DNA from: Ruditapes philippinarum
Lineage: Eukaryota
Length of the DNA: 64,000 nucleotides
NCBI RefSeq assembly: GCF_026571515.1
Contig: NW_026866837.1
Location: forward strand, 1-64,000
Direction of reading: 5' to 3'
A program made the translations under genes and the position numbers. This document shows positions 2,935-45,569 of this stretch, piece after piece (position 1 is the first letter of the stretch; every line of letters begins with the position of its first letter). Below the pieces are notes generated by a model. That model did not search any database. It saw nothing but the letters and a program-made list of their open reading frames with translations, and was not told the DNA's origin.

Positions 2935-3081
2935 ATATGAGCCGCGTCACGACAAAACCAACGTAATGCTGTTCGCGCGAACGGCATGGATCCTGATCAG
3001 ACTGCGCGGAGGCGCAGGCTGGTCTGGATCCATGCTGGTCGCAAACGCATTACGTTGGTTTTGTCGTGACGCGGCTCATAT
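2935..3081. mobile_element. Palindromic MITE family A (internally deleted copy)
   Basis: ATATGAGCCGCGTCACGACAAAACCAAC ... GTTGGTTTTGTCGTGACGCGGCTCATAT. Confidence 0.85.
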
Positions 3082-3107
3082 GTAATAATGTAGATTATAA
3101 GCTTTAC

Positions 3108-3192: not shown

Positions 3193-3846
3193 CTAGAAAT
3201 AAAACAACATTGTTCTTGTCAGAATAACACACAAGGCACGTGCTTAACAAATTATACCAAAGGAAGAATGCAACATTAAACATTTTTTGTCAGGCATTCC
3301 CATTTTTTCTAATTCTTTTTTTTAAACAGGCAAATGACATATCACCCATTTTCTTTAGCATTACACAATGCTATTACAAGAATTAAGTGAGGGACTGAGG
3401 GACAAAACATTTCGTTCGTTTATGCAGACATGTTACCTGTAATAGTTTTAAATCAGCAAAATTACTTCCTTTTTTTGCAATGATAATTTCAGTCGGATAG
3501 TTTTGTAATGCTTGAGTGGTACACATGTTTAATCTTAACTATCTAGGATGGGCAAGGACAAGTAACTGTAACCTATAAATTGTTTCGGTGAAATGTATGA
3601 TTAAGTTATTTGAATACAATGAAGAGGTAGACCAAAAATAAATTACATTGTTCCATTTTTTTCTGTCTGCCTTTTAAAGTGATAAAGAATATGAGCGATT
3701 TTCGTCAGCTGTTGCATAGATTACGTCTCAATTTTCTTACTTTTCACCAGTTTTTTTGTTCATAATTTAATAATTATTCGGCAACGCTTTCCTTAAGTAT
3801 CCTGATTAGTGGGTTATTGCGGAAGTACAGAGTGTACTGTTACGAC

Positions 3847-4076
3847 ATTTGAGCCGCGTCATGACAAAACCAACATAATGGGTTTGCGACCAGCATGGAT
3901 CCAGACCAGCCTGCACATCCGCGCAGTCTGATCAGGATCCGTGCTGTTCGCTTACCCAACTCTATTACAAAGCGAACAGCATGGATCCTGACCAGCCTGC
4001 GCGGATGCGCAGGCTGGTCTGGATCCATGCTGGTCGCAAACCCATTATGTTGGTTTTGTCGTGACGCGACTCATTT
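3847..4076. mobile_element. Palindromic MITE family A
   Basis: Near-perfect foldback with TIRs of about 100 bp, TGAGCCGCGTCATGACAAAACC...; five copies in the window. Confidence 0.9.
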
Positions 4077-4535
4077 AAGGTCTATAAATCTGATGTTAAT
4101 GTGGTAAAGATGTTAATGATGTATTGTAATCTATTCGTCTTAACACCACAAAATGCAAATAGTCTCGTACTTAAAAGTGCTTCGCTTAACATATAGTAGT
4201 CTTAAAGGCATATATGCACCGACAAACGCAAAACTGACTTTAAAAACAAAGTTACATGGTCGAATTAAAACAAGATTTATTCGTATTCCAAGAAAACCTA
4301 CTGGTAATAGCAGTTTGCATTTTAGGCATAACAAATGAAGGGGAGGAGGAACTCCTTTTTATTCATCTACTATTGTATATATTAATTCGATACATTATAT
4401 TACATTTAATTAAATTTTTCAATGGAAAATTGTTACAAAGACTTCTAAAGCTGAAATTGTTTCAGGAATTGAGTACAAAGGTTTTGCTCCAGGTTAAGAG
4501 TTATGACCCTTTGATTTTTAGAAGCGACGTTAGTA

Positions 4536-4736
4536 AGTAGTCAAGGGGGGGAGGATAGAACACTTTTTTTGAGTAAAAAAACAAAATCACTTAAGCGTAA
4601 CGACAGCGCGCCGCCATCTTGGAACATTGAGTCTTCGTCTCACGTTACTAACGTCCGCCATATTGCGCCGACGGATCTGGCGGATCATATTGGTATATCT
4701 AGCAGACGACAGTTTAACTTGTCCGCCAAAATTTGA
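4536..4736 (+). repeat. Left terminal inverted repeat (201 bp) of the Polinton
   Basis: Reverse complement of 13769-13969; no mismatch found by manual comparison. Confidence 0.95.
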
Positions 4737-5271
4737 TCTTTTTACAAAGTATTTGTTTTAAGCTGGATTTTAAACCTCTGTAGCAGACGTTCTTTTTCCA
4801 ATTAAAGGTATAGGGCGGTTTAAACCCTCAGTGAAGTAAAATAAGTATTTCATATTAGAGGAAAAATAATTTTACTCGGCCTTTTGAAATGCAACCATGC
4901 TGAAACTAAGCGTACACTCTACATACAAACGGCCTGTTTTGTTTAACGCTATTTTCTATGTAAAGTTGACGTAGAGATGTCTACATGCTTTAACCTACAG
5001 TCTATGGGGTAAATAAAACGAACATAAAAAGCAGAACCAGATTTTGTGACTTTAGACGTATTTTATTTACAGTTATTACAACATAGAATATGCAAGAAAC
5101 AAATGTAAAATACATAAATACAATGCATATACTTTCAAGTAAATACGCTACAATCACAGGAGTCTATAGAGGGGGGTGTTTTTTTTTTAAGATAGACTTT
5201 CTGTGGCTTATTGATAGAATTTCAGACTCCTGTGCTACAATAAACTTAATATTGTGATTTTCAATATATTA

Positions 5272-8200
5272 TTAATAACCGTAAGGGAACGAATTGTAGT
5301 TTTCAGAGATCACTCTCTTGTCAAACACAATTTTATAGTCTTTTATTTCTGTCTTTGTTATGATGTGACACATTTCTCTGTTTCTAACGATTTTATTTCT
5401 GTCCACAACTTTAACGCATTGATTTTGCATCTGTCCCGTTACCATATCTTTCAGTGTATCAAAATTAATGTCCAGTGAATTCTTAAAATTTAGCGTAATT
5501 CCCCTGACTTTACAAATTGAAGATTGACCTTTTTTGTTTGGCTTTTCTAAACAATATGCGTAGTTCTTAGGCCCCCCGGTGATGAATCTAGTTATTTGAT
5601 TGTTTGGAACTTCATCCGTTAAATCTCCCAGGAAGTCACCTAATGGAGGATCCCACTCACCCTGTACAGAGGTGAACACAACAGAATCGGTATCACAATA
5701 CAAAACTCTTTCACCTAATGGTTGTAAATAACTGTACAATTTCAAACGGGCTTGAGCGGTTGTGTATGCAGCCACAACAACATTGGTTCTACCTGATGTT
5801 TCTATGAAATCAGTATTATATGCCCAGTCTAACTGGACTGCTTCATCATTTATAAAACGTACGTTCTTGATTTCTTGTTGGTCAGATGTCATCATATCAA
5901 TGAATTGAGATGGATCATCAATAAAGGTTGTTTGCGTAAGGTTGGAACGTTGTCCAAATTTCCCCCAGAAAGAGTTAAGAATAATTTTAGCTAAAAGTCT
6001 CAGACCAGGATTTTCTTCAATCTTATCATAATCTAGTAAAATACCTTCTTTATCAAAATACTGCTTAATATACAATTGTTTGTCTTTTTCATTTTCACAC
6101 CAGTCTGGCCAACCACTGGCTTCCTGTTTGACTTTCAAGAAAGTATTCACATATTCTGTAAAAAGCCCACCTGTTTTGGTACACGGGTCGTATTGAGCTA
6201 TTTCAGTGAAATGCCAAACTTCGTAAATGGTAAGTAACTTATAACCTTGTGATAAAGCCATCTTAACTTCATCAGTGACCCAAGTGCCTGTAATGGCCCT
6301 TTCATCGTCACCGTGGGGACATTCTCCATTTTTATATGTTTCACTACAGGTGCGACAAAGAGTGAACATAAGCTTACCATTGCATTTGTTTGGCAGGACG
6401 GGAATATACAGTTTTCTTGGAGGTAGAATTTTGCATTTAATTAACCCTTCGTAATAGCTTATATTCTTAAAATTTTCAGTGATTATATTTGGATGGCCTA
6501 ATGGTATTTTCCCTGTTTTATTGATGAATGGATACAGAGATGTGACATCAAAGTACTTAATCTGAGTATCAGCCGTGGACTTTGCATACATTTTAAATGC
6601 TTCAGTGCGTCCACCATGGAAGGCATCTCTCGGTTCTAACGGGGACACAATTTCCAAAGATTCGATGTACTTTTTCATGATAGGATTGGACTCTAATTTC
6701 TTTTTGAAATCACATTCCCATATACTTTCATAAATATACCCTTCAGATTCAAGATACGTTTGCTTATCAAGGGTGTTTGTATATAATTCAGACATGGATA
6801 ATCCATTCACCCGATTAATTGTGTTTTTAGAAAAACATTTAGGGCAGCCATGCCAGAAATCGCCATGAAATTCTAGAACAACTTTTTGACCTTCTGCTGT
6901 TTCATAGTACCCATCAACTTTATATGGTCCTATTTGTTTCTCCCCCTTATTTCGGCCATGTTGGATATATATTTGCCTTTCAAATGCAAGGTAGGATAAC
7001 CATTGATAAGCCATGACTGACTGTTTGGCCTCGGGGCGGTAACCATGAGACGGGATGATACCAATAGTTTCATGATTCAAGAAAAGACTCCTAAAAACAA
7101 GATTACAAGCTGATGCTATTGTAATGCATTTCTCAAATGGGTCTATTCCATCATTGTCCGATGTTTGAGTGAGTTCTTTGAACAGTGTTCTGAATTTTAG
7201 ACAACATTTTCTAAGAATATCAACATCAGATTGACAGTAACGTAATAATTCTGTCTGCAGTGAGAAGGGTTTGTGGCTATTGATAGCATACCACTTTAAA
7301 AACTTCTGACGTGATTCTGGCCTCATGCTGTCGGGGTTGTAATACTTAATGTCAGGCAGATGATCAAGTTCTACCGAGTAATTTTCCGTCGTATTAAATA
7401 GATGAGGAAAGTACCCTTTTGCCAGTTCAGTTTCTCCAAAAGCTTTAGGCATGTCTGCAAGGGCCATTGGAATGAAATTCAGAGAGTCAATGAATCTTAT
7501 TTGAAAGATAGGTACTACAATGGACATGTATTTTGATCCCGTTGTTATCACCTCGGGCAGAATGGCGTTGTCATACAAAAATTTCATGATGGGATAACTA
7601 TCATACCCTTTGAAATTATGACAAAGAACTGTGGCACCCTTATTTTCAACCGTGAATAACCACTTACAGAATGACTCAATGGTATTTGAACCTGAAAACA
7701 CCCATTCATTTGGACCACATTGTGAACACTTTGAAGACGAGGTAACGTCAAGATGCAGACAAGTACTACAAACCCTGTGTGCTACACATAAATTTGCCCT
7801 ATGTTCCATAGATCCACACCAGGACTTCTTACAATTAACACATGTATTGTTAACACCAGGCAGGTAACCAGAAGCGCATTCAAGACGTTTATCCTGTGTA
7901 CATTCAAGATCAAAGAAAATATATTTTGTCTGTTTTTCTCTCTTCGTATCATTTTCAGCTAGAGCGTCATCATCTTTAACCGGTTGCATGTAGCATAAGT
8001 GATTCTCACTAACAAAGTCTTTGCATGTGTCGCAATACTTTTCACCACAAATATGGTCATTTTTATGTTTTGAACGGTTAATAAGTTGGCTGCAATGTTT
8101 GCATCTGTAATACGATTCGCAAGTTGATTTTCCCTTTTCCGTCTTCTTATTGTGCAGATCAAAACAAGTTTGATTTACAAATTTACAGTTGCAGGTTTCA

Positions 8201-9441
8201 CAAAATTGCCAGTCTTCAGACACATCTTCGTGAAGTTTATGGCAAAAGTAGCAAGGGTTATTACACTTATGACGTTCTTTGGTTTGGTATCCTTTCTTAC
8301 ACTTTTGGCAAAAAAAGCTTCTGTTCAAAAATCCTGTCATTGAAGTAATAACGTCATAATGATCATCATGGTTGTAGATGTATATAGGCACACCTCCCTC
8401 TGGTCCTTGATAAATGATGGCATTGAAGTGTGCTTTAGATACTACATGGATCTGATAGTTTACTAGGGCCGCCTGGAATTTCTTCACCTCTTCTATCCCG
8501 CATTTTCCGAGTGGCACGTCCGCTTTTTGATGAAGTTCTTTGGCCAGGTCTCGCTGTATTTGACGACCTTGGCGAATAATATCCCACTGCGGGTGCTTTT
8601 CCACACGAGCTATAGCTGTAGCTAGAGCTCTGCCACAACAAAGTTCATCCTTATTCTTTATTTGTATTACACTTTTCTTGTTCTGTAACATCTGAGTAAT
8701 GTCTACTGTTGGTTTCATTTTGTATCCTGAGCCTTTAACGTTTACGACATGAACCAGTTCTATACCAAATGTCTCGTCAACAACAAACTGCTCATAAGAC
8801 TGTAAAACTCGTTCAATCTCAGAGAGAAGTCTATCAACAGTAAGAGCTGATCTTGGCATAAATGTCAACACAATCGGATAGTCCAGTTCTGGGTTATCCA
8901 TGGACACCCTCACTAAATCATTGGCTGGAATATGTTCTGTAATTCTTGTAAGTATAGATTGAAATATTACTTTTAGTGTTTTTAAAATATTTGGTAAATC
9001 TCTCACTTCCAAGTCCTTGATTTTAATATTATAGTAAGAGGCCGTGGTGTTGAACTTTTCAATTCGTCTTTCGTTTATTTTCACAATGTTATAGTATTCG
9101 GAGGCATTATCCTTTGGTGTTAATTTTTGTCGTTTTCCCGAGCTATTATGTTCGTTATCACCATGAGTTCTTTTCATTCCACTGCCAGTTTGATTTTCAT
9201 GTTGTGAAAAATGTTCATCAAGCGCATCTTTCCTTGTAAAAACTTTAAGGCATTCCGGACAGTGGTGAGAATTTTCGTCTGCATGTTTCTTCATATGACG
9301 ATCTAAGTTCTGTTTTCTGTTAAATGTCTTCTTGCAGCTAGGGCATGTAAATTTTTGCCAATGATTCTCTATTCTTCTGTGCTGAAGCAGTTGACTTAGT
9401 TTAGTGAAACTAGCTCCACACTGTTCGCATGTATAAGCCAT
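5272..9441 (-). CDS. polB: Protein-primed family B DNA polymerase (pPolB, 1389 aa) with N-terminal C2H2 zinc fingers, OTU-like protease, 3'-5' exonuclease and inserted VSR-like nuclease
   Basis: Uninterrupted ORF. ExoI FFDLE, ExoII HNFKGYD, ExoIII YCQSDVDIL. Pol motifs YFDVTSLYP, KIILNSFWGKFGQ, YCDTDS, PKNY. Three C2H2 fingers at the N-terminus. OTU-like dyad NKDELCCGRAL...HYD. VSR-like motif VDGY...EFHGDFWHGC...WEC. Confidence 0.96.
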   Translation of the reverse strand: MAYTCEQCGASFTKLSQLLQHRRIENHWQKFTCPSCKKTFNRKQNLDRHMKKHADENSHHCPECLKVFTRKDALDEHFSQHENQTGSGMKRTHGDNEHNSSGKRQKLTPKDNASEYYNIVKINERRIEKFNTTASYYNIKIKDLEVRDLPNILKTLKVIFQSILTRITEHIPANDLVRVSMDNPELDYPIVLTFMPRSALTVDRLLSEIERVLQSYEQFVVDETFGIELVHVVNVKGSGYKMKPTVDITQMLQNKKSVIQIKNKDELCCGRALATAIARVEKHPQWDIIRQGRQIQRDLAKELHQKADVPLGKCGIEEVKKFQAALVNYQIHVVSKAHFNAIIYQGPEGGVPIYIYNHDDHYDVITSMTGFLNRSFFCQKCKKGYQTKERHKCNNPCYFCHKLHEDVSEDWQFCETCNCKFVNQTCFDLHNKKTEKGKSTCESYYRCKHCSQLINRSKHKNDHICGEKYCDTCKDFVSENHLCYMQPVKDDDALAENDTKREKQTKYIFFDLECTQDKRLECASGYLPGVNNTCVNCKKSWCGSMEHRANLCVAHRVCSTCLHLDVTSSSKCSQCGPNEWVFSGSNTIESFCKWLFTVENKGATVLCHNFKGYDSYPIMKFLYDNAILPEVITTGSKYMSIVVPIFQIRFIDSLNFIPMALADMPKAFGETELAKGYFPHLFNTTENYSVELDHLPDIKYYNPDSMRPESRQKFLKWYAINSHKPFSLQTELLRYCQSDVDILRKCCLKFRTLFKELTQTSDNDGIDPFEKCITIASACNLVFRSLFLNHETIGIIPSHGYRPEAKQSVMAYQWLSYLAFERQIYIQHGRNKGEKQIGPYKVDGYYETAEGQKVVLEFHGDFWHGCPKCFSKNTINRVNGLSMSELYTNTLDKQTYLESEGYIYESIWECDFKKKLESNPIMKKYIESLEIVSPLEPRDAFHGGRTEAFKMYAKSTADTQIKYFDVTSLYPFINKTGKIPLGHPNIITENFKNISYYEGLIKCKILPPRKLYIPVLPNKCNGKLMFTLCRTCSETYKNGECPHGDDERAITGTWVTDEVKMALSQGYKLLTIYEVWHFTEIAQYDPCTKTGGLFTEYVNTFLKVKQEASGWPDWCENEKDKQLYIKQYFDKEGILLDYDKIEENPGLRLLAKIILNSFWGKFGQRSNLTQTTFIDDPSQFIDMMTSDQQEIKNVRFINDEAVQLDWAYNTDFIETSGRTNVVVAAYTTAQARLKLYSYLQPLGERVLYCDTDSVVFTSVQGEWDPPLGDFLGDLTDEVPNNQITRFITGGPKNYAYCLEKPNKKGQSSICKVRGITLNFKNSLDINFDTLKDMVTGQMQNQCVKVVDRNKIVRNREMCHIITKTEIKDYKIVFDKRVISENYNSFPYGY

Positions 9442-9874
9442 GTTTATTGTTGCACGACTGAAACGATAATGAAAAAATAAATATTAGTGTCGAGTTAAGT
9501 AATAAACTTAGAAAAAAGATATATACACAAAAATTAGATTTTGTCTTAATTTTGGTACAAGAAGAAAAAAACTTTTTTAAGAGCCTATAGTTATTTCAAA
9601 TATAAAAAGCCAGGCGAGACTACAAAAAGCCAGGCGAGACTACAAATAGCCAGGCGAGACTACATATTTTACCTTATCGAATTATAAATTATCCTTTCTA
9701 ATATTCGGCACTGATCTTACAGGAAAGAGATTCTCTCTAGAAATGAAGACAAAATAAGGTTCAGTGATTTAAATATCTAACGTTGCGCATGCGCAGAACT
9801 GTTTATTGTACTCTATATAAGATGTGGGTTCGTTTAAAACGTGCCATTTGAGTGCTAGCCAAAGGAGAGTCACG
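9442..9874. promoter_or_regulatory. Putative bidirectional promoter between polB and the ATPase/integrase unit
   Basis: Divergent genes. Three tandem 20-bp repeats AAAWAGCCAGGCGAGACTAC (9604-9663), perfect palindrome TGCGCATGCGCA (9784-9795, NRF1/EWG consensus) and TATATAA (9814-9820). Confidence 0.65.
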
Positions 9875-10214
9875 ATGGAAAATATTACTTGCTCGGTGTG
9901 CAATGAACCGTTTTCTAGTAGATACAGTGTACGTAGACACATAACACGAAAACATTCAGATTTAATTGAAGGAGCTCAGGAGCCACAGGTTGGAGCACCG
10001 CAACACCTCTTTGGAGCATCGGAAAACCATTATGGTACTCCGGTGTACCGGTGCACCGGAGCACCAGGAGCGCATTTTGGAGCACCGGGGCACCATATTG
10101 GTGCACCGGTGCACCAGTGCACCACTCCTCCTCAAACACCTACACTACGATCAGAAGAAAACAATGAAATGGTGTTTCAACATCCCTTCACTATGATGAT
10201 TTCAGGTCCCACAG
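9875..10214 (+). CDS. Polinton packaging-type ATPase, exon 1 (C2H2 finger, GAP-x-H repeats, first half of Walker A)
   Basis: ATG at 9875 lies 55 bp downstream of TATATAA. Reads MENITCSVC...HITRKH...FQHPFTMMISGPT and ends at donor G|GTAAAT (10215), phase 1. Confidence 0.85.
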
Positions 10215-10415
10215 GTAAATACATTCTTACCTTTTTTCTGTAAATTTTATCACCATTTGAGACTATTTTGCCCAATTTTATTCCAGATTTTGATACATAT
10301 TTCTAGATATTTTTTCTACATTTTTTCTTTCAATTTTTCTTTCTTTAAAAAAAAATCATATATTTGCTTAGTTTGAAAAATTTCCAAAATACTAATTTTT
10401 TCTTGTTTTTTTCAG

Positions 10416-11722
10416 CCTGTGGAAAGACGACGATGGTGAAAGAGTTATTGCAGAATCACAAATTGAAAATACAGCCTGGTATTCAAAGGATCGTGTGGTT
10501 ATACAAACGATGGCAACCATTGTACACTGTTATTGAAAGAACTGTTTTTCCAAGAGTAGAGTTTGTTCAAGGTTTACCATCAGACTTAGATGACGACGAC
10601 TACTTTGATACTAAAGTCAACAATCTACTGATCATTGATGATTTGTTCTCTGAATCTGGCAAAGATAAACGCATTACAGATTTGTTTACGGAGGGATCTC
10701 ATCACAGGTCTCTCTCAGTCATTTCAATTAATCAGAATCTGTTTGGAAACAAAGATCCTACACAGAGAAGGAATTGTCACTACTTAATTCTCTTCCAAAA
10801 TACGATAGATAAGCAATCAGTGATGACATTAGCCCGACAGATGTACCCAGGGAATAGTGAAAAGTTGTTGAAACCATTTGAAAAAGCTACCAAGTATCCT
10901 TACGGGTATTTATTGGTGGATTTAAAACCGTTTACACCAGAAGATCAGAGGATAAAATGTTTGATGTCCAAAAACACCAAAATTAATCAATCTACAGAAC
11001 GCGTTCATCACGTGACTCCTCCCCAAGAACCTATAAAAGAAACTGTTTTTCCAAAAGTAAATTATTCTACAGCTGCAGTTCAAACAGATCACATCGAGGA
11101 TAAATCACAAGATAATTACGAAAATAATTCGGAAGACATAATGGAACCTAAAGGACAAGCTTGCGATGATTGTGGGCAATTATTTGACACTAATCACGAC
11201 GTGCAGAGACATGTTAAAAGCGGATGGTGTCCTGAACACAGGGAATCAAGGAAACGAAAACACGAGGAGTTGAGCGATAGCGAGCATGACGAAGATTCTG
11301 TAGAAGATAATGAGGCTTACGTTAATATATGGAAAAGAGCTAGAGAATCAAACGATCAAAAATTCGATAAAATATACAACACATTTATAGACAATGGGGA
11401 GGAACATGATGATGCTCAGGAAATGGCGGAAGAGCGCATACAACCTTATAACGAAAAAGACTTTTTCAGCAAGTATACAACTTTAATAGATAACTATATT
11501 CTTCCACTCAAAAACAGTAGATTACATACACAGATTATGGTCCAGATAGATAAACTGGTTTCAAAAGGTTTAAATCCGACATCAGCCGTGAAAAAAGTTA
11601 TCAGAAAGCATAAGAACTCATTTCAAGACTTGTTTGATATGGAATTTTCTGATGATGAAGAAGAGGAGGAAACAGATGATGACGTCAGCGGGGAGGAGGA
11701 AAGTGACCAAGAAAATATATAA
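10416..11722 (+). CDS. Polinton packaging-type (A32/FtsK-HerA superfamily) ATPase, exon 2, with C-terminal Zn-finger/helical/acidic extension; spliced protein about 548 aa
   Basis: Acceptor ttttttcAG (10414-15), branch-point-like ACTAAT at 10391. Splicing restores Walker A GPTACGKT. Walker B LLIIDD and the SHHRSLSVISINQN motif are typical of Polinton ATPases. Confidence 0.9.
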
Positions 11723-11778
11723 ATTAACATAACTTATCTTCTGTTGTTTATTTGTGTTGTGAATTTTAGACAGTAAAC

Positions 11779-12211
11779 ATGGCTCCTTGGGAGGACTATT
11801 TAAAAACTATTTATTATGATGCTAAACATCCCGGTGCGTTTGCCGGACCACAAAAACTGTATAAAGTTGTGAAATCTGAAGGAAAATTTAATATTGGTAT
11901 GTACAGAATACGTCAATTCTTACATGATCAGGAGTCCTATAGCCTGCATAAACCAGTAAGGAGACGATTTCAAAGAAATCATATTGTAAGTGCAGGAAAA
12001 GACGATTTATGGATGGCTGACTTGATCGATATGGTGAAATTTGCTGATTGGAACAAGGGTTTCAAATACATTTTATTGGTGATAGATACATTCTCCAAGT
12101 ACGTCTGGTTACAGCCGTTAAAATACAAAACTGGAGAAGAAGTAGCTCAAGCGTTTCAGAAAATCTTTACATCTTCAGACAGATCACCGGCCAAACTCAT
12201 TACTGACAAAG
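11779..12211 (+). CDS. Polinton DDE integrase, exon 1
   Basis: IYYD..HPGAF, WMADLID (first catalytic D), VIDTFSKY, LITDK (second D). Ends at canonical donor G|GTAAGT (12212), phase 1. Confidence 0.92.
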
Positions 12212-12396
12212 GTAAGTATTTATTTTTCTACAATTTATTTTTCAATTATAATTAGAGTTAAGCAAGACCTAATTATTTACAACAATACAACTACTGTAAA
12301 TCTGATATTCATATATCACTTAATTTTTATTTAATTATATAGGTATATATATATATATTATGTAAGGCAGATACTACACATTATTTATTTTTTCAG

Positions 12397-13067
12397 GTCA
12401 GGAGTTTAAAGCCAGGAAGGTCCAAGCTCTCATGAAGAAAGAAGAAATTCAATATTTTCCTACTCAAAATGAAACAAAGGCATCTACCTCGGAAAGAGCT
12501 ATTTTGACTATAAAGACCAGACTCATGCGCTATTTTTCGTATTTGGAGACTAGTACATTTCTACCTGTGTTACAAGACATTGCCGATAATTATAATCGCA
12601 CCTATCATAGAACAATTGGAATGAGACCTGCGGATGTCAAGGACACAAACCAGGAAGAAGTGCGTTTAGCTACATACTTTGCGCAAAATCCAAAATCAAA
12701 ACGTCCAGACGTTACACTTAAACCTTTCAAATTTAAAGTGGGTGACTTTGTGCGTATCAGTCATCTAAAAACTGTGTTTACCCGGGCGTATGACCAAACA
12801 TACTCTGGTGAAGTGTTTAAAGTACATAAACGCTTCCACCGAGGCACACTACCTATCTATAGACTTCATGATTTACAAGACGAAGATATTAAAGGAACCT
12901 TCTACGAGAGTGAACTTCAGAAAATTAACGTTGATCCTAATCAGACTTGGAAAGTAGAGAAAGTATTAAAAACCCGTGGCAAAGGGCGAAACAAACAATT
13001 ATTTGTAAAATGGAAATATTATCCGCGTAAATTTAACAGTTGGATAAATGCTAGTGATTTAAATTAA
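12397..13067 (+). CDS. Polinton DDE integrase, exon 2, with C-terminal chromodomain; spliced protein about 367 aa
   Basis: Acceptor ttttttcAG (12395-96); splicing restores TDKGQEF. Catalytic E in SERAILT; YNRTYHRTIGMRP; chromodomain WKVEKVL...VKWKYYP.KFNSW. AATAAA at 13173-13178. Confidence 0.92.
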
Positions 13068-13624
13068 TATTCTTTAGTTTACTTTGCCTTAGTTATGTTG
13101 ATAATTTTGTCAATATACGTTCTGTACTTAATAGTTATATGTTCAATGTTTAAACTGTATTTATCTCATGTAAATAAAATTGGTGAAGTACACTTAAACT
13201 TTGTTGTATTTTTCAATTCAAAACATTTGCCGATATTACAAGCGTGCATTTAAACCTGGGTGTAATAATGCGTTTAAGGTAGTAAACGTCGTCTGCTCTG
13301 ACACAAAAAGTGATCGTCTGCTACACATTTAATCGTTTAACGTTTAACGATATCTTTGACCGCTATACAACAACTAACCAAGTTGTACATATCAATAAAC
13401 TTGCTGATATCTGATTGGCTGTCTAATAAATTGAGCCAAAAAAAGTGGTGAAAAAACTTACCAAATATTGAGAGATTTTCTTTGCTGTGTGTAAATTCGA
13501 ATAATTTTATCTGTAAGCGATTGTGTTGATGTGAACCGTACGCTGTCAATAGCGGTAATGAAATAAAGTATCGGAAAATTGGTTTAAATACTGTACAGCA
13601 GATAAATAGTTTATGATGAAATAG

Positions 13625-13800
13625 AGCGTCTGCTACAGAAGTTTAAAATACTATCTTAAATCAAATATTGGGAAAAACTATTTTCAAACTTTGGCGGCCA
13701 ATTTAAACTGTCGTCTGCAACAGAGGTTTTAAATACATGTACTAGCTAAATATTGGTAAAAACTATTTTCAAATTTTGGCGGACAAGTTAAACTGTCGTC
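13625..13800. repeat. Subterminal imperfect tandem repeat (about 85 bp unit, 2+ copies) running into the right TIR
   Basis: CGTCTGC.ACAGA.GTTT.AAATAC...AAATATTGG.AAAAACTATTTTCAAA.TTTGGCGG.CAA.TTAAACTGT is repeated from about 13627 and about 13712. Confidence 0.8.
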
Positions 13801-13969
13801 TGCTAGATATACCAATATGATCCGCCAGATCCGTCGGCGCAATATGGCGGACGTTAGTAACGTGAGACGAAGACTCAATGTTCCAAGATGGCGGCGCGCT
13901 GTCGTTACGCTTAAGTGATTTTGTTTTTTTACTCAAAAAAAGTGTTCTATCCTCCCCCCCTTGACTACT
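13769..13969 (-). repeat. Right terminal inverted repeat (201 bp) of the Polinton
   Basis: Reverse complement of 4536-4736. Confidence 0.95.
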
Positions 13970-16900
13970 TTAGTAATCTAATACACGGATTCGAAGGATT
14001 GTGTCCCTTGATAACTCTTTCCGCTGCAGGTTAGATCTTCAGCATGCAATGCAATAAATAATAATGAGAAGACATCAAATTCTTGAATTGTACACAAAAT
14101 TATTTCACATGAACAATTATTGTGCAAGTATGTTAACAAGGAAAATTTCATGTCAGAAACTATAAAAAGATCTTTATTTATTTGAAAGTATAAGTTCAAT
14201 AATGTATATATATTTTTAATCTTTTCCCTACTTTTTTAAACTTCGTCCTTGCTACAGTAAGATTTGTCCTTACATTTTAGAATTAACATTTTCAGACCAT
14301 AATATTGTTGTTGGGTCGTAGACCGCTTGACCTTGCGCGTCTGTCTTTTTAGAAAATCTTTTTGAAAACATTTATTTTGCATACTTGCTTATCTCATTTT
14401 CATTTAGACCATGGTACACAGCGTTTGAATGGAACAACTTAAAGTGATATACTTAATTCCCGATTAAATTAAACTTGAACATAACCCTTTAGGTCTTTAA
14501 TAATCAAAATTACATTTTTAACCACAAAGATTTTAAACGTAATATCTTTTGACATCGTACATCCAGACAAATATTAACATTCTTTTTTTAGCTAAAGATG
14601 TATATCCGTTTTTATTACCAATTCATTCTTTTTTAATTCAGTTTTTATGTGTTGTAATGTACCTCTGTAATTGGTCTAAACCTTATCTGTCATGTCGCTA
14701 TGTATGAAGAATTTTTATATGAATGAAATGTCTGTCTTTTTTGTTGAAGATTTCACAGTTCTTTTCTTGAAGGAAATGATTACTTCACACGAATTTTTCA
14801 ATAAAACTAACCGCAAGTGGCGTGCGGATAATTAGAAAACTTGGGTTTAATTTTAAACCTGACATGTTATACGACATGCTAATTAAACTCTCGAGTATAA
14901 AGCGGGCACTGAATGTCCAGTGGTGTCATGTCAGGCCACGCAACCGGGCGCTACGAATTAGACTCATATCTTTATTTTCAATCAAACTAAGTTTAGCGTG
15001 CTTCATAGTTAACACAGTAAATTAATGGATCTAAAGCTAGAAATAGGTACAAAATAGGTATAGTCAAAATGTCACCTGTTATGACAATAGATGATAATAT
15101 CTAAAACAACATAGAAAGAAGAAGTTCGAGTCCCATTTGTAGTGGCCATTGCTAGCTTTAGATAGAAGGTGTGAATCTCAGTAGTGACTCGGGTTGACCC
15201 GAGTTAATCAGAAATACAACCGGCTTTCACATGCCATATTTTGAAAAGCTATTGTATTTTGCGCAATACAAACATAAACGAGGTCGTAATCGAAAGTCGA
15301 ATACATAATTTAATTTTTCCACTATTGACATTATGTAATTAGCAATAGAAAATTAGTTAATTTTACCACATAAAATAGATTAGGATTATCAGATTAACTT
15401 TTATATCTTTTAGTGGTTGTAAACGTTTGATATTTTACATGTATTTGTATACTATAATTGACAAATAAATCTGACTTCTTGACTGCCATCCAAGTAGACA
15501 ATTACAGTCTGGCATGCATGCATGCCTGCATTAACGTGATGTAAATGAAATTTTACCGGTGCTTCAACTGCCAAAATATCACATAATAAGACAACTTTTA
15601 TTTGTACCTGCACATAAAACAGCGCATTGTCAGCATATTAGCCAATTGGTATATATAAAGCAAATGTAACAAGACCGCAAGTGTCAACTATTTCAACGTC
15701 AACAAGTAACAAGTTGATGATGAACGCGGACATGTAGCTATTAAATGGTTTGTTATACAATAGAAAAAGCAAAAGAAGAAAAAAAACTCCAAAAAAAAAA
15801 AACGTAAAACAAAAATAAAACAAACAAATAAAAAAAGGAGATAAAAATCGCAAAGCGGTGAGCGGCAGATATGTCTTATTTTTCAGTTCATTGCCATGCT
15901 ACAGTCACAGTAATATATTGCATTCAACGACAGGCAGATGTAAAAAAAAAAAGATGTTTCAGTTATTTCCTCAACACTGTACCAAGACGATACCGGTATA
16001 AACCGGGAGATTTCGGTATGTATACGTATATAAACCTGAAGGAATTCTTGTAACGGGTTTCTTATGAATGGTACTTTAGCAACACTTCATATTGTATAGC
16101 TGTCAATAAAATTCTGTAATAAATAATATCTTATTGTTTATTGTTGATTACAGGAACGTCAATGTAATTTGCAATTACAGCTCTGTAAGTATAGAAATGA
16201 TTCCACCCAATTTTAACCACAGGTCCTGATTTCAATCGTTTTGTAAAGGAAGAACAGAACGTAATTATCCAGAAGTTTAAAATGTCTTTATCAACTCCCG
16301 GACTGATTGTCATTGGGTAGGACCCAAATTAAGCACTAGACATGGTACAATAGGTAATCGGCATCTAAGTAAGTCCTGAGTCTGAGCCCCTGTTGGTTTG
16401 ATTGGTATGGCTCTAGGTTACCACTGGTCACATGTAATACATGGCAGGTAGGTTTTCAAGCTGGTGATTTGTAAGTTATTTGATTCTGAATGAAGCGCGT
16501 TAGTGTTAACGTCAAAATGCAGAACACATGTGAAATTGATGAAATGTTATAGACAGCGGGTTTTTGACATGCTTACTAAGCCTTTAAAGTTAAGATAAAC
16601 ATTCGGGTGATATGTTTTCAAGTTACAACATACCTCTGTTGACAGCCTGTCCCTGGGTTTGTTAATGCTTGAATTACTCGAATTCCTCTGCCCTCTTTCT
16701 GCTCCCTTACTCGAATCTTTATCCTGTACCCCAGGATCCACATTATCCGTGGAACTTGCAGACACAAGCGCAAAATACATGGTAAAATCCTCACAGGAAT
16801 CAAACTGATACACTATAATCACTTTTCCATATCTCACCACCACACCTCAGGTAAGTTAAATATGCACAGTTAGACATTCTTTAAAGGTATATTCCATTCA

Positions 16901-19307: not shown

Positions 19308-19529
19308 NNNNNNNNNNNNNNNNNNNNNNNNNNNNNNNNNNNNNNNNNNNNNNNNNNNNNNNNNNNNNNNNNNNNNNNNNNNNNNNNNNNNNNNNNNNNN
19401 NNNNNNNNNNNNNNNNNNNNNNNNNNNNNNNNNNNNNNNNNNNNNNNNNNNNNNNNNNNNNNNNNNNNNNNNNNNNNNNNNNNNNNNNNNNNNNNNNNNN
19501 NNNNNNNNNNNNNNNNNNNNNNNNNNNNN
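19308..19529. other. Assembly gap (222 N)
   Basis: Run of n. Confidence 1.
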
Positions 19530-25966: not shown

Positions 25967-27895
25967 TATATAATATACATGTATACACATGAATTTTCCT
26001 TTCAATTTTGAATGCCTTAGATTTATGAACCCCAGTCAACAATATCAATAAACCTTTGAAACTTTCTTTAAACTGATGTAAATCAGTGAACATAAAGTGT
26101 TAAGAGATAAATGCATTAATTTATTTTCACAAAAAAACCCCAGAAAAATACAAACATGTTGAACATTTTCCTGATTTTGCCCTCAAATTCTGAATAGTGT
26201 TGTAATATTTCCCATTATACATGTAAATGTATCAATTAAGAAATACTGATATTATGAGAGAATAATTATAGTCTGCATATATGCTGCCAGTCACTTCAAA
26301 TTCTGTCAGTTATTCTTATTAACTGATTGATATTGATATGTCACAGCCTGACAGGGGCTCAAACACCTAGCCAACCCTTGGAACACTGTTCTTCAAAAGG
26401 AGGCCGGTATTTTACCCCTATCAATTAGGAGAAAGTCACAAACTCTTATTATTAAACCAGGGTTTGAGCCTTAAGTGCAGACAATATTAACTTGATGTTC
26501 AGGAATACAAGGGAAAATACAACATTGTTTTACATTTTATAACCTTTAATTTCATTTGCAATAGTAGTGCCATTTAAGCTCTTAAATTGTTTATTTAGAT
26601 ATAATTTTGGTAAAGATCCCAGTAGTACCTATAGTATTAAAAGTCATGACAGGTCTTTAAAGTAACATGCATTTCCTATTCCCTTCTGACATTAAACTGA
26701 AGATATCATCAAAACTCTATTTATTGCAATGTTTCACCATCATATATCTATCTATCTATCTATCACTTAAAACAGGTGTTTATGGGGACCCAGTTTGTTT
26801 ACTTTAGTCCTTTTTTTTACTTTTTGACACCTGTTTATTTCATATAATTTGTAAGTTGTATCTCTAGTAAAGTCCATAGAAGAGCCAAATTAATCTATAG
26901 ATATTCCCTATAAATTAAATCAATAAGGATCATGTTTTTACTTAAATAACCAAATTCATTAAGATTCTCCTAAAAATAGAAAATATTTAGTGAAATAACC
27001 CTAATTTAATAAGATTAGGCTTAATAAATCCCAAAAATAACCAAAACAGTTATAAAAATCCATACAATTGTATGATGATTATTAACAAACATATTTAAGG
27101 GTCCAAACCAAACAATCCCTATGAAATTCTATGAACTTGTATAAAAGTTATATAATGATTATCCTATATAGCCTAACAATTTCAATCCAACAATAAATGA
27201 GGTAATTTTACCCTAATTTAACTTCTCCTACAAGAAAAGGTCTATAGTTTATTAATTTGATATAATAATATCTATTAACAACAATATTTAACTGACTTGG
27301 AGAAGAAAACCCCATCAAATTCTATCGGAAACTAAATAAGTTATGACATAATCAATTATAATGGCCATTTATAGTCCAAGGGAGAGAACTATGAAAATGG
27401 ACCTCGCACTGATTTTTCAGCATGCAAATAAAATTAACTGAATAAGTAGTTCTATACACACAAGATATATCCAATATAATTGAATACAACTTATAAGAGT
27501 TTAAAAGAGTTAATCTAACCAATTACAACATAAGATTCTTTAATAATATAGGAAAAAAAGAAACTTTTATAGCCAATAAATGAAAATACCACTAAATAGC
27601 AGGAGTTATCTGCTCTCCCCTTTATAACAAATACATATATGACTTATATGGCACTATGATATGTTTTAAACTTAGTTAGTGTAAATATAATCATATGAAA
27701 AGTGCTGTGATAGGTCTACAATGTTAATAAATTCTAGGAAATTTGTCCTTAAACTACTTTATTTAATGATTATTCACTCCTTAAATGACACTTATAACAT
27801 GTCAGAAGAGAAATAAAACATAAAATGATAAATGTTGAACCCTAATATAAATTATTTGTTTACCTGGGTGCCAGACCATACTTTAAACCTTAAAT

Positions 27896-28051
27896 ATTTG
27901 AGCCGCGTCATGACAAAACCAACATAGAGTGTTTGCAACCAGCATGGATCCAGACAAGCCTGCGCATCCGTGCAGTCCGATCAGGATCAATGCTGTTCGC
28001 CATCAGTATCTCTACTTGTTATAGGGTTTGTAAGGGAACAGCATGGATCTT
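27896..28051. mobile_element. MITE family A, truncated copy
   Basis: Left arm and centre only. Confidence 0.8.
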
Positions 28052-31000
28052 GAATATACACAATTTAGAAATTTATTATCATTCTTTCAACAATATAGCA
28101 CCAGTATAAATTACAAAATATTATGCATCAATATGCATTTTAAAAAAATCCACGTCGAACTGAAGCTGATGAAAATGTTACTTATTAATCAGACTTGTTT
28201 ATTCCAAATACATGATTTACTTTTAAAAGCATTTTAGGTCAATAAAAATACGGATGTTCCATACTTATCTATTGACACATTGTTGCTCGGATTCACTTAA
28301 CAGTATAAATTTATTCCGCTAAGTGGAAACGAATATTAAATCATAGTAACATATCTGCTATGAACAAAATTATGAAAAACCATGAACACGTAGATAGATA
28401 TTCATAAAGTTTTTTAAACAACTGACCAATAAATAATATGTCTGAACCAGTACTTTTAATATTAGATAGAACACACAAAATCTTTTCCAGTTTTTTTTTA
28501 GGTTTTATTGTTTTCTGACTGTAGCTTCAAATAGTCAAATAACATTGTGACTTTAACAAGAATATTTAAATAAAGACACCCATCTATTAGAATATGTAAC
28601 AGCTAGATTAATGTGAGTGTTTCATAGTGTGAATTGACATTCTGTATTTCGTTTGTCTTTTTGGTTCATTCTGCGCAAAGTTGGTCTGACAACCCAAACA
28701 AAAATGATAGACTCTCTATGTCTGTATAAAATGTGTAACAATTGTCCATAAAAGATATAACACTGTATCAGGGAGGATGTAAAGGTATTTCTGTATTGAA
28801 AATGCCAGGTATTGTAGACCTAATTAACAAACGAAATATTCTCTCTAACATATTAACATACTCCTGGCATAAAAATGCTGAATACATTTAATATATGCAC
28901 ATTATTTTGGTGAAAAAAAAATACGGAATTCCACAAATTTGATTGGCCTATTGTGCGCGAAGTTGGATGGGACACTAAAATTGCTGTGCCACAGCTTTTC
29001 AAAACCTTATTCAGATTGAAGATTAGAAAGAAAAGAAAACCTTAAATATGTAAGGATGATATACAATAAGCAACACCACTGATCAGAACTGGTTAACTAG
29101 AACTTGTCTAAAACGTATATTTTAAGACTATCTTTTATGGACAATGTCACAAACTAAGTATTGTGATGTCAATACTCCCATTTAGTATATACTCTTATAA
29201 ATACTATAAAGTTAGATTAACTGTAAGGCATAAATTTGATACTTAAGCCCTTGTTTTGCTGCTGGAATCGACTGTGATTACCCTTTGGCACGTTGACACC
29301 AGTATAAAGCCAGGCCAGCCTGCACATTCATGCAACGGTTCTGGGGAAAAGTCCTGCAGCTTGATTTGACCTCTACAATCACTTGTGAGTGAGATCAAAA
29401 TCAAAATATGTTTGCAAACCCTGCTGAAGATCAGTTTTATTGGGGTACAAACATTATATCCAAAACATGGCAACGTCACTTTCCATGTATAGGCCACTGA
29501 AGCTTTCAAAAGTTATAGTATCAAAATAACTCCTTTTTATATCACTTATGCCAGAGACATAGATCTAGATCTCCACTTATGTTAAAGAAATGATGTTTAT
29601 CTTTAAGTTTAGCCGTGCATTTTCACATTTCTTCATATACTTTATGAATATTCTGAATCGAAAGAATTTTATCTTGCAATCTATAGAAAGTAAAACTCAT
29701 TAAAAGACAAGATAATACAGTAGACTATATTTTTATTGACAGAATACATGTATAGTTTATTGACAATATAATAATGCAAACATAAACAAGCCAGACAAAG
29801 AACATGAACTTTAACATGTAAAGAACAAATATATAAGATAAACAAACAGAAGATTTCATTAAGCGCCATTACTTTGTAATCCTACATTATTTTCTAACAT
29901 CTCAAAGCTAGCACAGGTATGCAGTACTTCAAAAAATCACTTATGTAAGTTACAAAAGTCAACATTTCAATGATTATAGATTTGATTTAAGTTTTTGCAA
30001 CAACAAAAAAAAAAAAAGACACAAAAAGCTTTGGGGCATTCATGGAAGTTGCTAGTATACATAACATGTAAAGGGCAATAATCTAAAACGACTTAATGAT
30101 ATTAATCCTCTAAGAGTTGCCCCCCTTATAACAAGACAAATACCAAGATTGCAGGCTTGACTGAATAATTTACAAAATATTGAAATAACTGCAAGCTATC
30201 TGTCTGAATCAATTATAAAACAAAAGAAGGCTTACTGGTACATTTGTTTACTTTCAATGACCCTCTAATGATGAAATCATAAATATACATATATTTAATG
30301 AACATATCTTTACTTAATTTCAAAACACTTCCAACAGTAATTTAAGGGTTCATGATAAAAAGTAATAAAATCAAGTAAATAAAGTAAAAAAAAGTCTGTT
30401 CAGACTGTAAGGATCAGCAGGCTGACAGGACTCTTATACTGGTTGCAGACAAGTCAATATAATTGATATCATTAACAGAGTTCATAAAAATATGTTATGT
30501 TTTCAGTTGAATACCTTATTAAAAATATAACATCATTATCTTAACCGGGCAGAAGGAAGATAAATGATGACAAAAGTTACTATATTTAACTCAAGTTTAT
30601 CAAAATATTGTCCATATATCTATATAAAAGTTTGTATTATTAAATAATTGTTAATTGTTTTCACAATGTAATATTGTGATACATACATGTGAGTCAGTGA
30701 ATTTAAACAATTGTACAGGTACATTGCAAACTTGTACAACATAGTGTCGTACGAAGAAAATTTTTGTTGAATTTTTTGTAGCATTTGTTTTATAAGTTTA
30801 CAACATCTATAGTAATTTACATAAATGTAAGTTTACATTGTCAATATAACAGTATACTGCGTAAAATATGATAACATATTATTATTATTATTATATCATT
30901 ATTAAAATATTTCAGCTGATAAGATATAAAATATTCAGCTTATTAAGTATGATTAATAAACAAAGAATTTCAATTAAACTTGTAACTAAAATTAGTAGTG

Positions 31001-33202: not shown

Positions 33203-35199
33203 ACTAGAACTATCACTAAATGTGATTAATACCCCCACAAGTCTGCTTCGGAAATGAGGATGTTACTAGTAACAGAATACCTTGTAATAGAATTGAAACA
33301 TAGAGTTATGGTTGTGGGCAATTAAAGATAATTGTGGTTCATGTATGTTGCATTTCCTTTCAATGTGGTTGGCCATTGATGAAGTTTAATTGAATTACTC
33401 TGTAATAAGTCCAGAAAGACAAAGAAAAAGAACAAAGGGCAATAACTCTATAAATACTGAAGATAGAGTTATAGTTCTTGTGCACTGCACTTCCTTTTAT
33501 TTTTCTTGACCATTGTATGAAGTTGTTTTGAATTTCAACCAGTATGTTTTAAGTTATGCTCCAGACAAGGAAAAGTATCAAAGGCAGTAACTCTGTATTT
33601 TGTCAAAATGGAGTTATGGCTCTTGTGCACTGCACTTCCTTTTAATGTCCTTGACAACTGTATGAAGTTGTACTGAATTCCAAACAGTAGTTTTCAAGTT
33701 ATGCTCTCGACAAGGAAAAGTAACAAAGGGCAGTAACTCTGTAATTAGTCAAGATGGAGTTATGGTTCTTGTGCACTGCACTTCCCCTTATTGTGCTTGA
33801 CCATTGTATGAAGTTGTTTTGAATTTCAACCGGTAGTTTTCAAGTCATGCTCTGGACAAGGAAAAGTAACAAAGGGCAGTAACTCTGTAATTAGTCAAGA
33901 TGGAGTTATGGTTCTTATGCACTGCACTTCCTCTCAATGTGCTTGACCATTGTATGAAGTTATAATGAATTCCAATAATAAGTCTTCAAGTTATGGTCCG
34001 GACAAAAGAAAGCAATGGAAAAGTAACAAAGGGCAATAACTCTGTAATTAGTCAAGATGGAGTTATGGTTCTTTTGCACTGCACTTCCCCTTATTGTGCT
34101 TTGCCATTGTATGAAGTTGTTTTGAATTCCAACCAGTAGTTTTAAAGTCATGCTCTGGACAAGGAAAAGAAACAAAGGGCAGTAATTCTGTAATAAGTCA
34201 AAATGGAGTTATGGTTCTTGTGCACTGCACTTCCTCTCAATGTGCTGGACCATTGTATGAAGTTATAATGAATTGCAACAATTAGTCTTCAAGTTATGGT
34301 CCGGACAAAAGAAAGCAATGGAAAAGTAATAAAGGGCAATAACTCTGTAATTACTTTAGATAGAGTTATGGTTCTTATGCACTGCACTTCCTCTTAATGT
34401 GCTTGACCATTGTATGTAGTTATATTGAATTCCAACCATTAGTCTTCAAGTTATGGTCCGGACAAAAAAAGAAGGCAATGGAAAAGCAACAAAGGGCAAT
34501 AACTCTGTAATTACTTTAGATAGAGTTATGGTTCTTGTGCACTGCACTTCCCCTTATTGTGCTTGACAATTGTATGAAGTTGTTTTGAATTCCAACCAGT
34601 AGTTTTCAAGTTATGCCATGGACAAGGAAAAGTAACAAAGGGCAATAACTCTGTAATTAGTCAAGATAGAGTTGTGTTTCTTACGCACTGCACTTCCTCT
34701 CAATGTGCTTGACCATTGTATGTAGTTATATTGAATTCCAACCATTAGTCTTCAAGTTATGCTCCGGACAAGGAAAATGCAACGGACAAAAAAAAAGCAA
34801 TGGAAAAGCAACAAAGGGCAATAACTCTGTAATTACTTTAGATAGAGTTATGGTTCTTGTGCACTGCACTTCCCCTTATTGTGTTTGACAATTGTATGAA
34901 GTTGTTTTGAATTCCAACCAGTAGTTTTCAAGTTATGCCCCGGACAAGTAAAAGTAACAAAGGGCAATAACTCTGTAATTACTTTAGATAGAATTATGGT
35001 TCTTATGCACTGCACTTCCTCTCAATGTGCTTGACCATTGTATGTAGTTATTTTGAATTCCAACCATTAGTTTTCAAGTTATGCTCCGGACAAAGAAAAT
35101 GCAAGGACGTCTGGACCGACCGACTGACCAACCAACCGACCGACCACTGGGTGACTCCTATATACCCCCCCCCCCCCAAACTTTGTTTTTGGGGGTATA
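33203..35199. mobile_element. HINE/DINE-like (Helentron-associated) element with internal tandem array (146/158-bp units, about 11 copies)
   Basis: Starts AAACTAGA. Array anchored by AAAGGGCAATAACTCT...GTTCTTGTGCACTGCACTTCC, then a (GACC)n microsatellite and terminal hairpin TATACCCCC...GGGGGTATA. Confidence 0.8.
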
Positions 35200-36745
35200 A
35201 ATAGAAAAAGGAAAAAAAAAAAACTTAATTCTTAAAACTACCCCCACCTTCTCACTGTTACTGTTCATTTCATATATTAACTGTAGATTACAATTTTGGA
35301 TACTACCCTGTGTAACATACTTTGAATACCTATAACACTGTTATATTCTTTACTTTGCCTCACTAGAGCTACCTTGAATTTAATAATGTATGTACCTCAT
35401 ATAACATACATTAAAGCTGTAACATTAATGTATCATAAATAGATAGCAGAATAACCCTGCAGACACTTTATTCACTATCATTAATTTCTCACATTGAACA
35501 CAATGAAATGAGCAAACTATTTTTCTTTTAACATTTACCCTACTATATTAGTTAGAATGGACTTGGGTCTGACGTTACAAAAAATACTATAAGCTAAAAC
35601 TCAGAACACAAATCACTGATTGGTCAGAAACTGTGACAAAATGTACATTGACCAATGAAAATCCTGAGATTTGAAAGAGAATTCAGAAACAAGTTTTATA
35701 AACTCAAGGCTTCATCTGGTTGCTGTCAAATCCATTGCTAATATAAGGGATTTCATGATTTGGATGTCAAAACTAGGTAGCCAATGGTCAAGAGTATAAG
35801 AAAAGAACAGAACAGAACACGAATGTGCTTGATGGTCTTCCTCTATACTAGAAGTAAAGACAAGTTGACCGTTCAATTTTCATTAACACTAAAGATAATA
35901 TCGCGAATGAACATAATTTCATATCACAAAAAAAAAAGAAAAAAAAAAAAGAGCAAAATACAAAAACAGGATACTTTATAAAGTAAATAGCGAGACTAAA
36001 AACATACATGTAGCAGCAGTGTATATGGTTATATACATGTACAGAATTTTTGCATAATACAACTCAATAAATAAATATTGCAATAATAGACACTGCATCA
36101 ATGATACATTATGGCAAGAGTTTACAAGTATAATTTTGTCAATTAGTTAATTAATACATGTACACTCATTTAATATCATTAATTAATTTCTGTTTGGAAA
36201 AAAATTCATTTTATTTCAGTTTCTAAACACACATTATAAATTCATAACTTCAGCTTACTTAGTATGATATTTATATATATGACTGCTATCATTATAAAGA
36301 TTTGGGTCAACATTTTATAAAAATATATCCAGAAAATTGATAACAATTAATTGACCTTGAACTTTGTAACATATTATTATCACCTTAGTGCAGTAACAGG
36401 TTAACTCTTATCCGATTTAATAGGAGTTAACCTGTTACTGCACTAAGATGATATCATGCTAAATTCTCTATCATTGCAGGGACTCCCCTTGATATCATAA
36501 TTTTATGATAATTCAGAAATAACAGTACAGTATTGTAAGAAAGTAGTAATCATTTTATATATTATTATGGTATATATGTACGTCAACATTACTTTTATTA
36601 TGCCAAGTATCTCACATATAATTATAATTAGCACATAGCCACTATAAAATAGTCAGTACATATATTTACATATTTGGTGTTTATTATTTGGTGTATCAAA
36701 GCATAAAACTGTTGACTCTGTGAAAAATTACGACCTTGCCATATA

Positions 36746-36987
36746 ATATGAGCCTTGTCATGACAAAACTAACGTAAGGGTTTGCGACCAGCATGGACCC
36801 AGACAAGCCTGCACATCCCTGCAGTCTGATCAGGATCCATGCTGTTCGCTATCAGTTTCGCTACATGTAATGGAGTTTGAAAGCGAACAGCATGGATCTT
36901 GATCAGACTGCGCGGATGCGCAGACTGGTCTGGATCCATGCTGGTCGCAAACACATTACGTTGGTTTTGTCGTGACGCGGCTCAAAT
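36746..36987. mobile_element. Palindromic MITE family A
   Basis: Same termini and core as 3847-4076. Confidence 0.9.
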
Positions 36988-45337: not shown

Positions 45338-45569
45338 AAATAAGCCGCGTCACGACAAAACCAACATAATGGGTTTGCGACCAGCATGGATCCAGACCAG
45401 CATGCAGTCTGATCAGGATCCATGCTGTTGGCTTACAAACCCTATAACACGTAGAGAAACTGATAGCGAACAGCATGGATCCTGATAAGACTGCGCGAAT
45501 GCGCAGGCTCGTCTGGATCCATGCTGGTCGCAAACCATAGTGTTGGTTTTGTCATGACGCGGCTCAAAT
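45338..45569. mobile_element. Palindromic MITE family A (in EHD intron)
   Basis: Same termini and core as 3847-4076. Confidence 0.9.

Follow-up and report, generated by a model that had tools for sequence, protein, structure and literature searches.

The Polintons/Mavericks of animals have AGT-ended terminal inverted repeats (TIRs) and a 6-bp target-site duplication (TSD), and encode a protein-primed DNA polymerase (pPolB) with vOTU-like motifs, an rve-chromodomain integrase and an A32-type ATPase, together with a major capsid protein (MCP), a penton protein, a protease and accessory genes. Transpovirons travel in helper virions. Part of PMC11161782 presents them, with cytoplasmic linear plasmids, as capsid-less derivatives of polinton-like replicons that have pPolB-derived enzymes. 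“Capsid-less Polintons” are named as a concept in a passage of PMC4405056; the main example, the Trichomonas Mavericks, was later found to have an MCP, which in the pertinent passage of Bellas et al. 2023 (PMC10120064) points to every Maverick-Polinton being an endogenous virus. Table S1 of PMC4028283 (2014) lists two entries scored as having an ATPase and as lacking MCP, penton and protease, namely P_Pd1.1 from Platynereis dumerilii (10,777 bp) and P_Gi1.2 from Glomus intraradices (11,019 bp); the same source covers the non-autonomous Polinton-1N1_DR and Polinton-2N1_DR and further entries without all four morphogenesis genes.

Here, we describe an element of Ruditapes philippinarum that occupies 9,434 bp at positions 4536-13969 of a 64-kb window (the whole stretch of DNA analysed), and that is confirmed as real and as a member of the Polintons/Mavericks, not as a virion-forming polintovirus. 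It has both the AGT-type TIR ends and the 6-bp TSD, and it encodes a protein-primed PolB, a retrovirus-like integrase and an FtsK-HerA/A32 ATPase. Unlike the animal Polintons/Mavericks, it is without MCP, penton, protease and accessory genes and measures only 9.4 kb, its ATPase and integrase genes have spliceosomal introns, and zinc fingers are fused to both its pPolB and its ATPase. The gene set has precedent, since P_Pd1.1 and P_Gi1.2, known as single entries of the 2014 table (PMC4028283), show the same pattern of presence and absence at similar size. The non-autonomous entries and those without morphogenesis genes are capsid-less like the element, but going by that table they lack the ATPase too, whereas the element keeps intact polymerase, integrase and ATPase; from transpovirons and linear plasmids it differs in its own integrase, its nuclear introns and its packaging-class ATPase. 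A literature search, with subscription papers and Repbase outside its scope, found no study of such a capsid-less bivalve Polinton lineage.

The outline of the element agrees with the original prediction, which had claimed perfect 201-bp TIRs, an intact 6-bp TSD and spacers of about 535, 430, 56 and 700 bp: the TIR arms are complementary at 201/201 bases, TTAGTA flanks both ends, and the spacers measure 535, 433, 56 and 701 bp (Table 1). The sole N run of the window (19308-19529) falls outside the element. pPolB lies on the minus strand, and the ATPase and integrase follow on the plus strand, divergent from it. The stretch between pPolB and the ATPase is a putative promoter region, and the tandem repeats within it are candidate binding sites for the element's own zinc fingers; alignments of related copies extend as far as 9661-9676, and the 20-bp motif is present in the C8201 copy too, despite a pPolB only 48-53% identical. 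AATAAA signals lie on the pPolB strand at 5062 and downstream of the integrase at 13173 and 13394.

Table 1. Features of the element in the window, followed by the related TIR/TSD-bounded elements found elsewhere in the host genome.
Feature	Positions or size	Strand	Basis or remark
Left TSD, TTAGTA	4530..4535	.	single copy at empty site, run X12
Left TIR, 201 bp, starts AGTAGT	4536..4736	+	sequence
pPolB, 1389 aa, one ORF	5272..9441	-	PF03175 E=2e-47
Divergent intergenic region, 433 bp, TATA-like TATATAA near 9814	9442..9874	.	sequence
20-bp repeat in three tandem copies, upstream of pPolB	9604..9664	+	sequence
ATPase exon 1: C2H2 finger, Pro/Gly-rich stretch, Walker A start	9875..10214	+	sequence, domain search
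GT-AG intron, 201 nt, splits Walker A	10215..10415	+	sequence; splicing inferred
ATPase exon 2: A32/FtsK-HerA domain, disordered linker, C2H2-like finger, all-helical domain, acidic tail	10416..11722	+	model, folds
Integrase exon 1, rve core	11779..12211	+	PF00665 E=2.6e-5, under curated cut-off on half domain; intact homologues
GT-AG intron, 185 nt, directly after second catalytic Asp	12212..12396	+	sequence; spliced joint, run X3
Integrase exon 2: catalytic Glu region and chromodomain	12397..13067	+	domain search
Right TIR, 201 bp, ends ACTACT	13769..13969	-	sequence
Right TSD, TTAGTA	13970..13975	.	sequence
C4116 element	9,117 bp		TSD GCTTGT; every frame open
C7025 element	10,677 bp		TSD TATATA; left end duplicated
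C897 element	7,493 bp		TSD CCAAGT; deletion in pPolB
C7920 element	7,329 bp		TSD TCTTGA
C10050 element	8,261 bp		TSD TTCGAC; decayed

Three undisrupted genes had been predicted; this holds for pPolB, a single ORF, but the ATPase and the integrase are open only after splicing, which would yield proteins of 548 and 367 aa. pPolB has three C2H2-like fingers at its N-terminus, vOTU-like motifs (Cys near 269 and His near 361), and motifs that we take to be those of the exonuclease and of the catalytic site of the polymerase. By analogy with the layout described in part of PMC11161782, a terminal-protein domain may lie N-terminal to the vOTU. The predicted set of pPolB, ATPase and integrase is likewise present, with the qualification that the “ATPase” is a long fusion of zinc finger, ATPase, zinc finger and helical domain, unlike the short ATPase of the capsid-bearing Polintons in the same genome. 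In the predicted structure of its exon 2, a P-loop domain leads through a disordered linker to a zinc finger and helices, and the fold matches A32, IVa2 and the STIV2 packaging NTPase B204 (for B204, Z 10.9, rmsd 3.3, 164 aligned). The ATPase has retained Walker A and Walker B as well as the motifs seen in capsid-linked relatives, and a Walker B-type motif occurs in 67/74 rows. An atlas search with the tail returned only generic zinc-finger and unnamed clusters (0.90-0.91). The long fusion is spread over bivalves (Ruditapes, Pecten, Mytilus, Pinctada and Solemya), at 37-75% along most of its length.

The integrase gives rve and Chromo matches and is 40-42% identical to integrases of capsid-bearing Polintons. 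Its intron recurs at the matching position, with 87-164 nt, in eight of nine homologues checked, the intron of the C4116 element being in frame at 87 nt; in ten capsid-bearing Polintons of the host genome the integrase is contiguous at this point. The intron that splits Walker A is found at the identical position in 5/11 homologous loci checked and is missing from the other six. In run X3, which is RNA only by guess, a single contig has the integrase intron precisely removed, its short side being 26 letters. Raw RNA reads cover the element at a depth of 1-16 on both strands, introns included, and no splice joint occurs among the 15 listed out of 363. Expression of the element is weakly supported. 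Intact vertebrate Mavericks are intronless according to a passage of the literature, and the lineage-specific introns fit prolonged nuclear residence. Splicing of ATPase exon 1 to the integrase is also conceivable, an idea based on an AG that sits 5 or 2 bases before the integrase ATG in 19/20 members of the integrase clade described below; against it, the donor is missing from two clade members and the ATPase stop is overlapped by a TATA-like box.

The prediction had further held that the element contains no capsid debris, which our searches bore out. Pfam PF21738 gave no match in the genome, its control being silent too, so an MCP profile of our own was built instead from 61 MCPs of the Polinton type of the host genome, with 12 positive controls. 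The seed of this profile, a 429-aa ORF of the host genome, has the predicted fold of a double jelly-roll MCP (pLDDT 88, TM 0.6-0.67 to viral MCPs); a sequence search of the MCP alignment against the PDB gave no matches. The profile matches 12/176 sequences overall. At E<=10, neither the window nor 41 of the 42 other stretches listed, these 41 having reduced or fold-back elements, gave a match; the one positive stretch is the capsid-bearing L171. In the five non-coding segments tested, the longest stop-free stretches are 56, 51, 53, 40 and 101 aa, and alternative frames across the genes are stop-free for at most 87 aa. There is likewise no coding room for a penton or a protease. In place of a validated penton profile, 14 ORFs of co-resident large Polintons were compared with the element and gave nothing below E 0.03; for an adenain-like protease, the element gave no match to a co-resident Peptidase_C5 ORF at E<=1. 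The larger Polintons of the host genome have genes for integrase, adenain protease, a short A32 ATPase, PC4, BIR and TBP, and the genome holds 99 MCP matches at about 58 places. ATPase, pPolB and integrase queries returned no loci from IMG/VR viral contigs, a result with no bearing on virions.

A stable reduced lineage, and not a random deletion, had been proposed, and the copies in the host genome speak for the same. A TIR search gave 42 matches, and six elements, the one in the window included, are bounded by TIRs and TSDs, share the layout pPolB(-)/ATPase(+)/integrase(+) and have six different TSDs (Table 1), as several insertions independent of one another. Further copies, whose ends are not both resolved, include C11099, C10725, C13115, C14991, C1829, C8201, C11152, C2666 and C4390. 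The majority of related copies are damaged by stops, frameshifts or deletions. Among the nearer ones, DNA identity is 85-91% in pPolB and 73-83% in ATPase and integrase, a gap that hints that recombination took place at the divergent promoter. The search for a capsid-encoding parent of near-identical sequence found none. In the pPolB search of the genome, in which the best 109 of 211 candidates were scored and 67 core matches tabulated from those, an MCP match lay at most 15 kb away for 0/25 core matches at 55% identity or more, and for 17/42 below 55%.

The trees extend this pattern beyond the host genome, for which gene context comes from short contigs and accession adjacency, not from whole elements. 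Matches covering fewer than 146 residues (ATPase) or 186 residues (integrase) were left out. In the integrase tree (39 rows), a 20-row clade at 100/100 includes the window, copies from its own genome, three proteins of Mya and ATPase-integrase loci from metagenomes; all 12 rows with MCP context fall outside it, and its sister is a group of three intronless ATPase-integrase loci. A quick tree of the ATPase, which includes two long-branch rows from broken copies, groups the window, own-genome copies, Mya and Mercenaria in 32 rows at SH-aLRT 100, with no capsid context. The Mytilus proteins are not in this group, and neither are rows L086, L114 and L106, which have the reduced layout, so this layout may have more than one origin. 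At the metagenome locus L086 the complete layout is present, at 38-59% identity, its right end lying beyond the contig. The closest named homologues are from clams (Ruditapes at 75-91%, Mya and Mercenaria). Mya arenaria, which is represented in the capsid-free integrase clade, has four zinc-finger pPolB genes 1, 1, 2 and 3 accession numbers away from ATPase-integrase gene models, with no partner listed for the remaining proteins looked up; in Mytilus, pPolB adjoins the long ATPase (VDI13173/13174). Judged from these sequence comparisons, it is supported that the element belongs to an old bivalve Polinton lineage without capsid or protease genes.

The family has moved recently and its insertion is polymorphic, as shown by an empty site in run X12 and new flanks in runs X12 and X3. 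One X12 contig joins 4529 to 13970 and skips 9440 bases, which correspond to the element plus one TSD copy, and is the empty allele; five contigs (three X12 and two X3) carry other flanks at the element ends. All three genes are shown to be under purifying selection. In pairs that all include the window copy and are not independent, dN/dS is 0.07-0.11 for the ATPase domain (7/11 pairs, those with unsaturated dS), 0.07-0.36 for the finger/helical part of the fusion and 0.44-1.14 for the ATPase linker. The integrase gives 0.05-0.23, and purifying selection acts on the ATPase as it does on the integrase, at a dN/dS of about 0.09.

The long form of the ATPase also occurs in capsid-bearing elements elsewhere, directly after MCP and protease at locus L171 and near an MCP at locus L112, and is therefore likely an inheritance from an ancestor that encoded capsids and formed virions. 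Metagenome contig L102 carries both a long and a short ATPase, which implies that packaging can do without the long form. On balance, we lean towards reading the element as a recent insertion of an old capsid-less bivalve Polinton lineage that is an autonomous, self-synthesizing intracellular transposon with a repurposed ATPase. Drawing on Polinton biology as set out in part of PMC11161782, an excised copy would be replicated from its TIRs by the protein-primed polymerase, vOTU would likely release the terminal protein, and insertion of the replicated product would fall to the integrase. The zinc-finger ATPase would likely have been retained for an intracellular job in which it binds its own DNA and acts as a DNA motor or regulator, not for filling capsids, a role that we favour because no related helper was found among the capsid families inspected, nor an end signal shared with the one family compared, and the lineage gained introns. 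A passage of a coral study (PMC11131425) counts against the transposon reading, in stating that a strictly endogenous lifestyle would likely lead to the loss of such genes.

Slightly more probable is a broader statement, which leaves the role of the motor as an alternative: these minimal Polintons would form an ancient clade that spans the bivalves and is mobile to this day, and that has shed all capsid genes, gained spliceosomal introns in two catalytic motifs and kept a packaging ATPase that bears zinc fingers and is strongly selected for the handling of the element's genome. The clade would be either the first satellite of an endogenous polintovirus in animals or the first instance in which a packaging motor of viral origin was turned to transposition. 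The lineage, being multi-copy, insertion-polymorphic, selected and without room for a hidden capsid, likely contradicts the view that every Polinton is a virus, and the transposon-or-virus question can be tested within a single host in which both kinds reside. The kept ATPase points either to satellites that parasitise helpers among the Polintons of animals or to a packaging motor with an unrecognised function inside the cell.

The satellite alternative, under which the element replicates and integrates by itself and its ATPase, with the zinc fingers selecting the element's genome, loads that genome into capsids of co-resident capsid-encoding Polintons, is possible, although we consider it unlikely. 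It explains the conserved motor more simply. An intact, selected packaging-class ATPase with Walker motifs is what a satellite would keep; the long ATPase sits within an MCP-protease-ATPase block in L171, the host genome holds potential helpers in plenty, and the conserved 20-bp repeats could serve as a packaging signal. However, the capsid families inspected there (C14730/C1727/C4304, C1829 and 10 further MCP loci) carry only short, distant ATPases, 27-41% identical to that of the element, or none in the stretch read, and comparison of the TIR with the end of one family, the main capsid family, gave a best match of 10 bp (E 0.22).

Adenovirus IVa2, a structural neighbour of the ATPase, has a transcriptional role. 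The two C2H2 fingers, the Pro-rich stretch and the acidic tail of the fusion also resemble a transcription factor, and it could be kept solely for gene regulation by its zinc-finger and acidic domains, with motor activity incidental. We regard this as improbable, given that the ATPase domain is constrained as much as the finger/helical part or more and that its catalytic motifs are retained. Least probable, and largely refuted, is that a full-length capsid-encoding Polinton recently lost its interior or that the element has a capsid gene that escaped recognition: derivatives with deletions do exist in the family (C897, C7920 and C8259), the polymerase search scored only part of its candidates, and Trichomonas Mavericks seemed capsid-less before a divergent MCP was found (a passage of PMC10120064), but the identical layout recurs at 47-93% protein identity with synonymous sites saturated, no close polymerase has an MCP beside it, coding room is absent, the ATPase tail is all helix, and pPolB residues 117-1389 align unbroken to the pPolB of capsid-bearing relatives. 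Surveys that demand an MCP and at least 10 kb, as described in part of PMC11131425, would miss the element.

A rearranged fragment in the host's own genome (L042, C10910:1-3683), in which the pPolB end is joined to ATPase sequence, shows 99.5-99.8% identity to the window element, and is either another very young copy of that element or an assembly artefact. The same genome also holds several fold-back elements with pPolB sequence only, located in their inverted arms, which resemble integrated snap-back products of strand-displacement replication. The one on C6095 has 1.8-kb inverted arms, the TIR AGTAGTGGAGGA and the TSD AATGCG; on C1197, two pPolB frames, both open, are arranged tail to tail.

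At three loci, an integrase without intron precedes the long ATPase (the zinc-finger fusion form), i.e., in reverse order, with neither pPolB nor MCP present within the stretches read. Their integrases form a clade of their own in the integrase tree, and on C15819 the integrase-ATPase unit lies in tandem repeats. Integrase ORFs of 339-345 aa constitute a numerous family on many host contigs (e.g., C3259, C1784 and C9566); in a search of this genome, their match was confined to residues 53-143 (42-47%), and they possibly represent another transposon family bearing an integrase.

Genes for PC4, BIR (apoptosis inhibitor) and TATA-binding protein are carried by a capsid-encoding Polinton family. 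Polinton genes were also found in symbiont MAGs labeled Sedimenticola, Thiodiazotropha and Thiodubiliella (stretches L171, L173 and L175; proteins P0056, P0097 and P0267), and probably come from host DNA that ended up in the symbiont bins. Within the window, a high-copy palindromic MITE-like repeat occurs at 5 places, and RNA runs are very rich in it; the tandem arrays have unit sizes of 146/157, 165, 28 and 41 bp.

Locations of repeats in the window and of related loci (C contigs: host genome, G000)
Feature	Stretch	Location
Palindromic MITE-like repeat	window	2938-3088, 3840-4081, 27894-28053, 36745-36992, 45336-45575
Tandem arrays	window	33413-35109, 37538-39239, 49682-52444, 53030-53849, 60362-61742
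Intronless integrase, then long ATPase	L157	C2378:202746-205570
Intronless integrase, then long ATPase	L158	C15819
Intronless integrase, then long ATPase	L091	
Fold-back element, pPolB only	L164	C6095:161501-169400
Fold-back element, pPolB only	L162	C11155
Fold-back element, pPolB only	L166	C3993
Fold-back element, pPolB only	L061/L062	C1197
Capsid-encoding Polinton, PC4/BIR/TATA-binding-protein genes	L051, L054, L057	C14730, C1727, C4304
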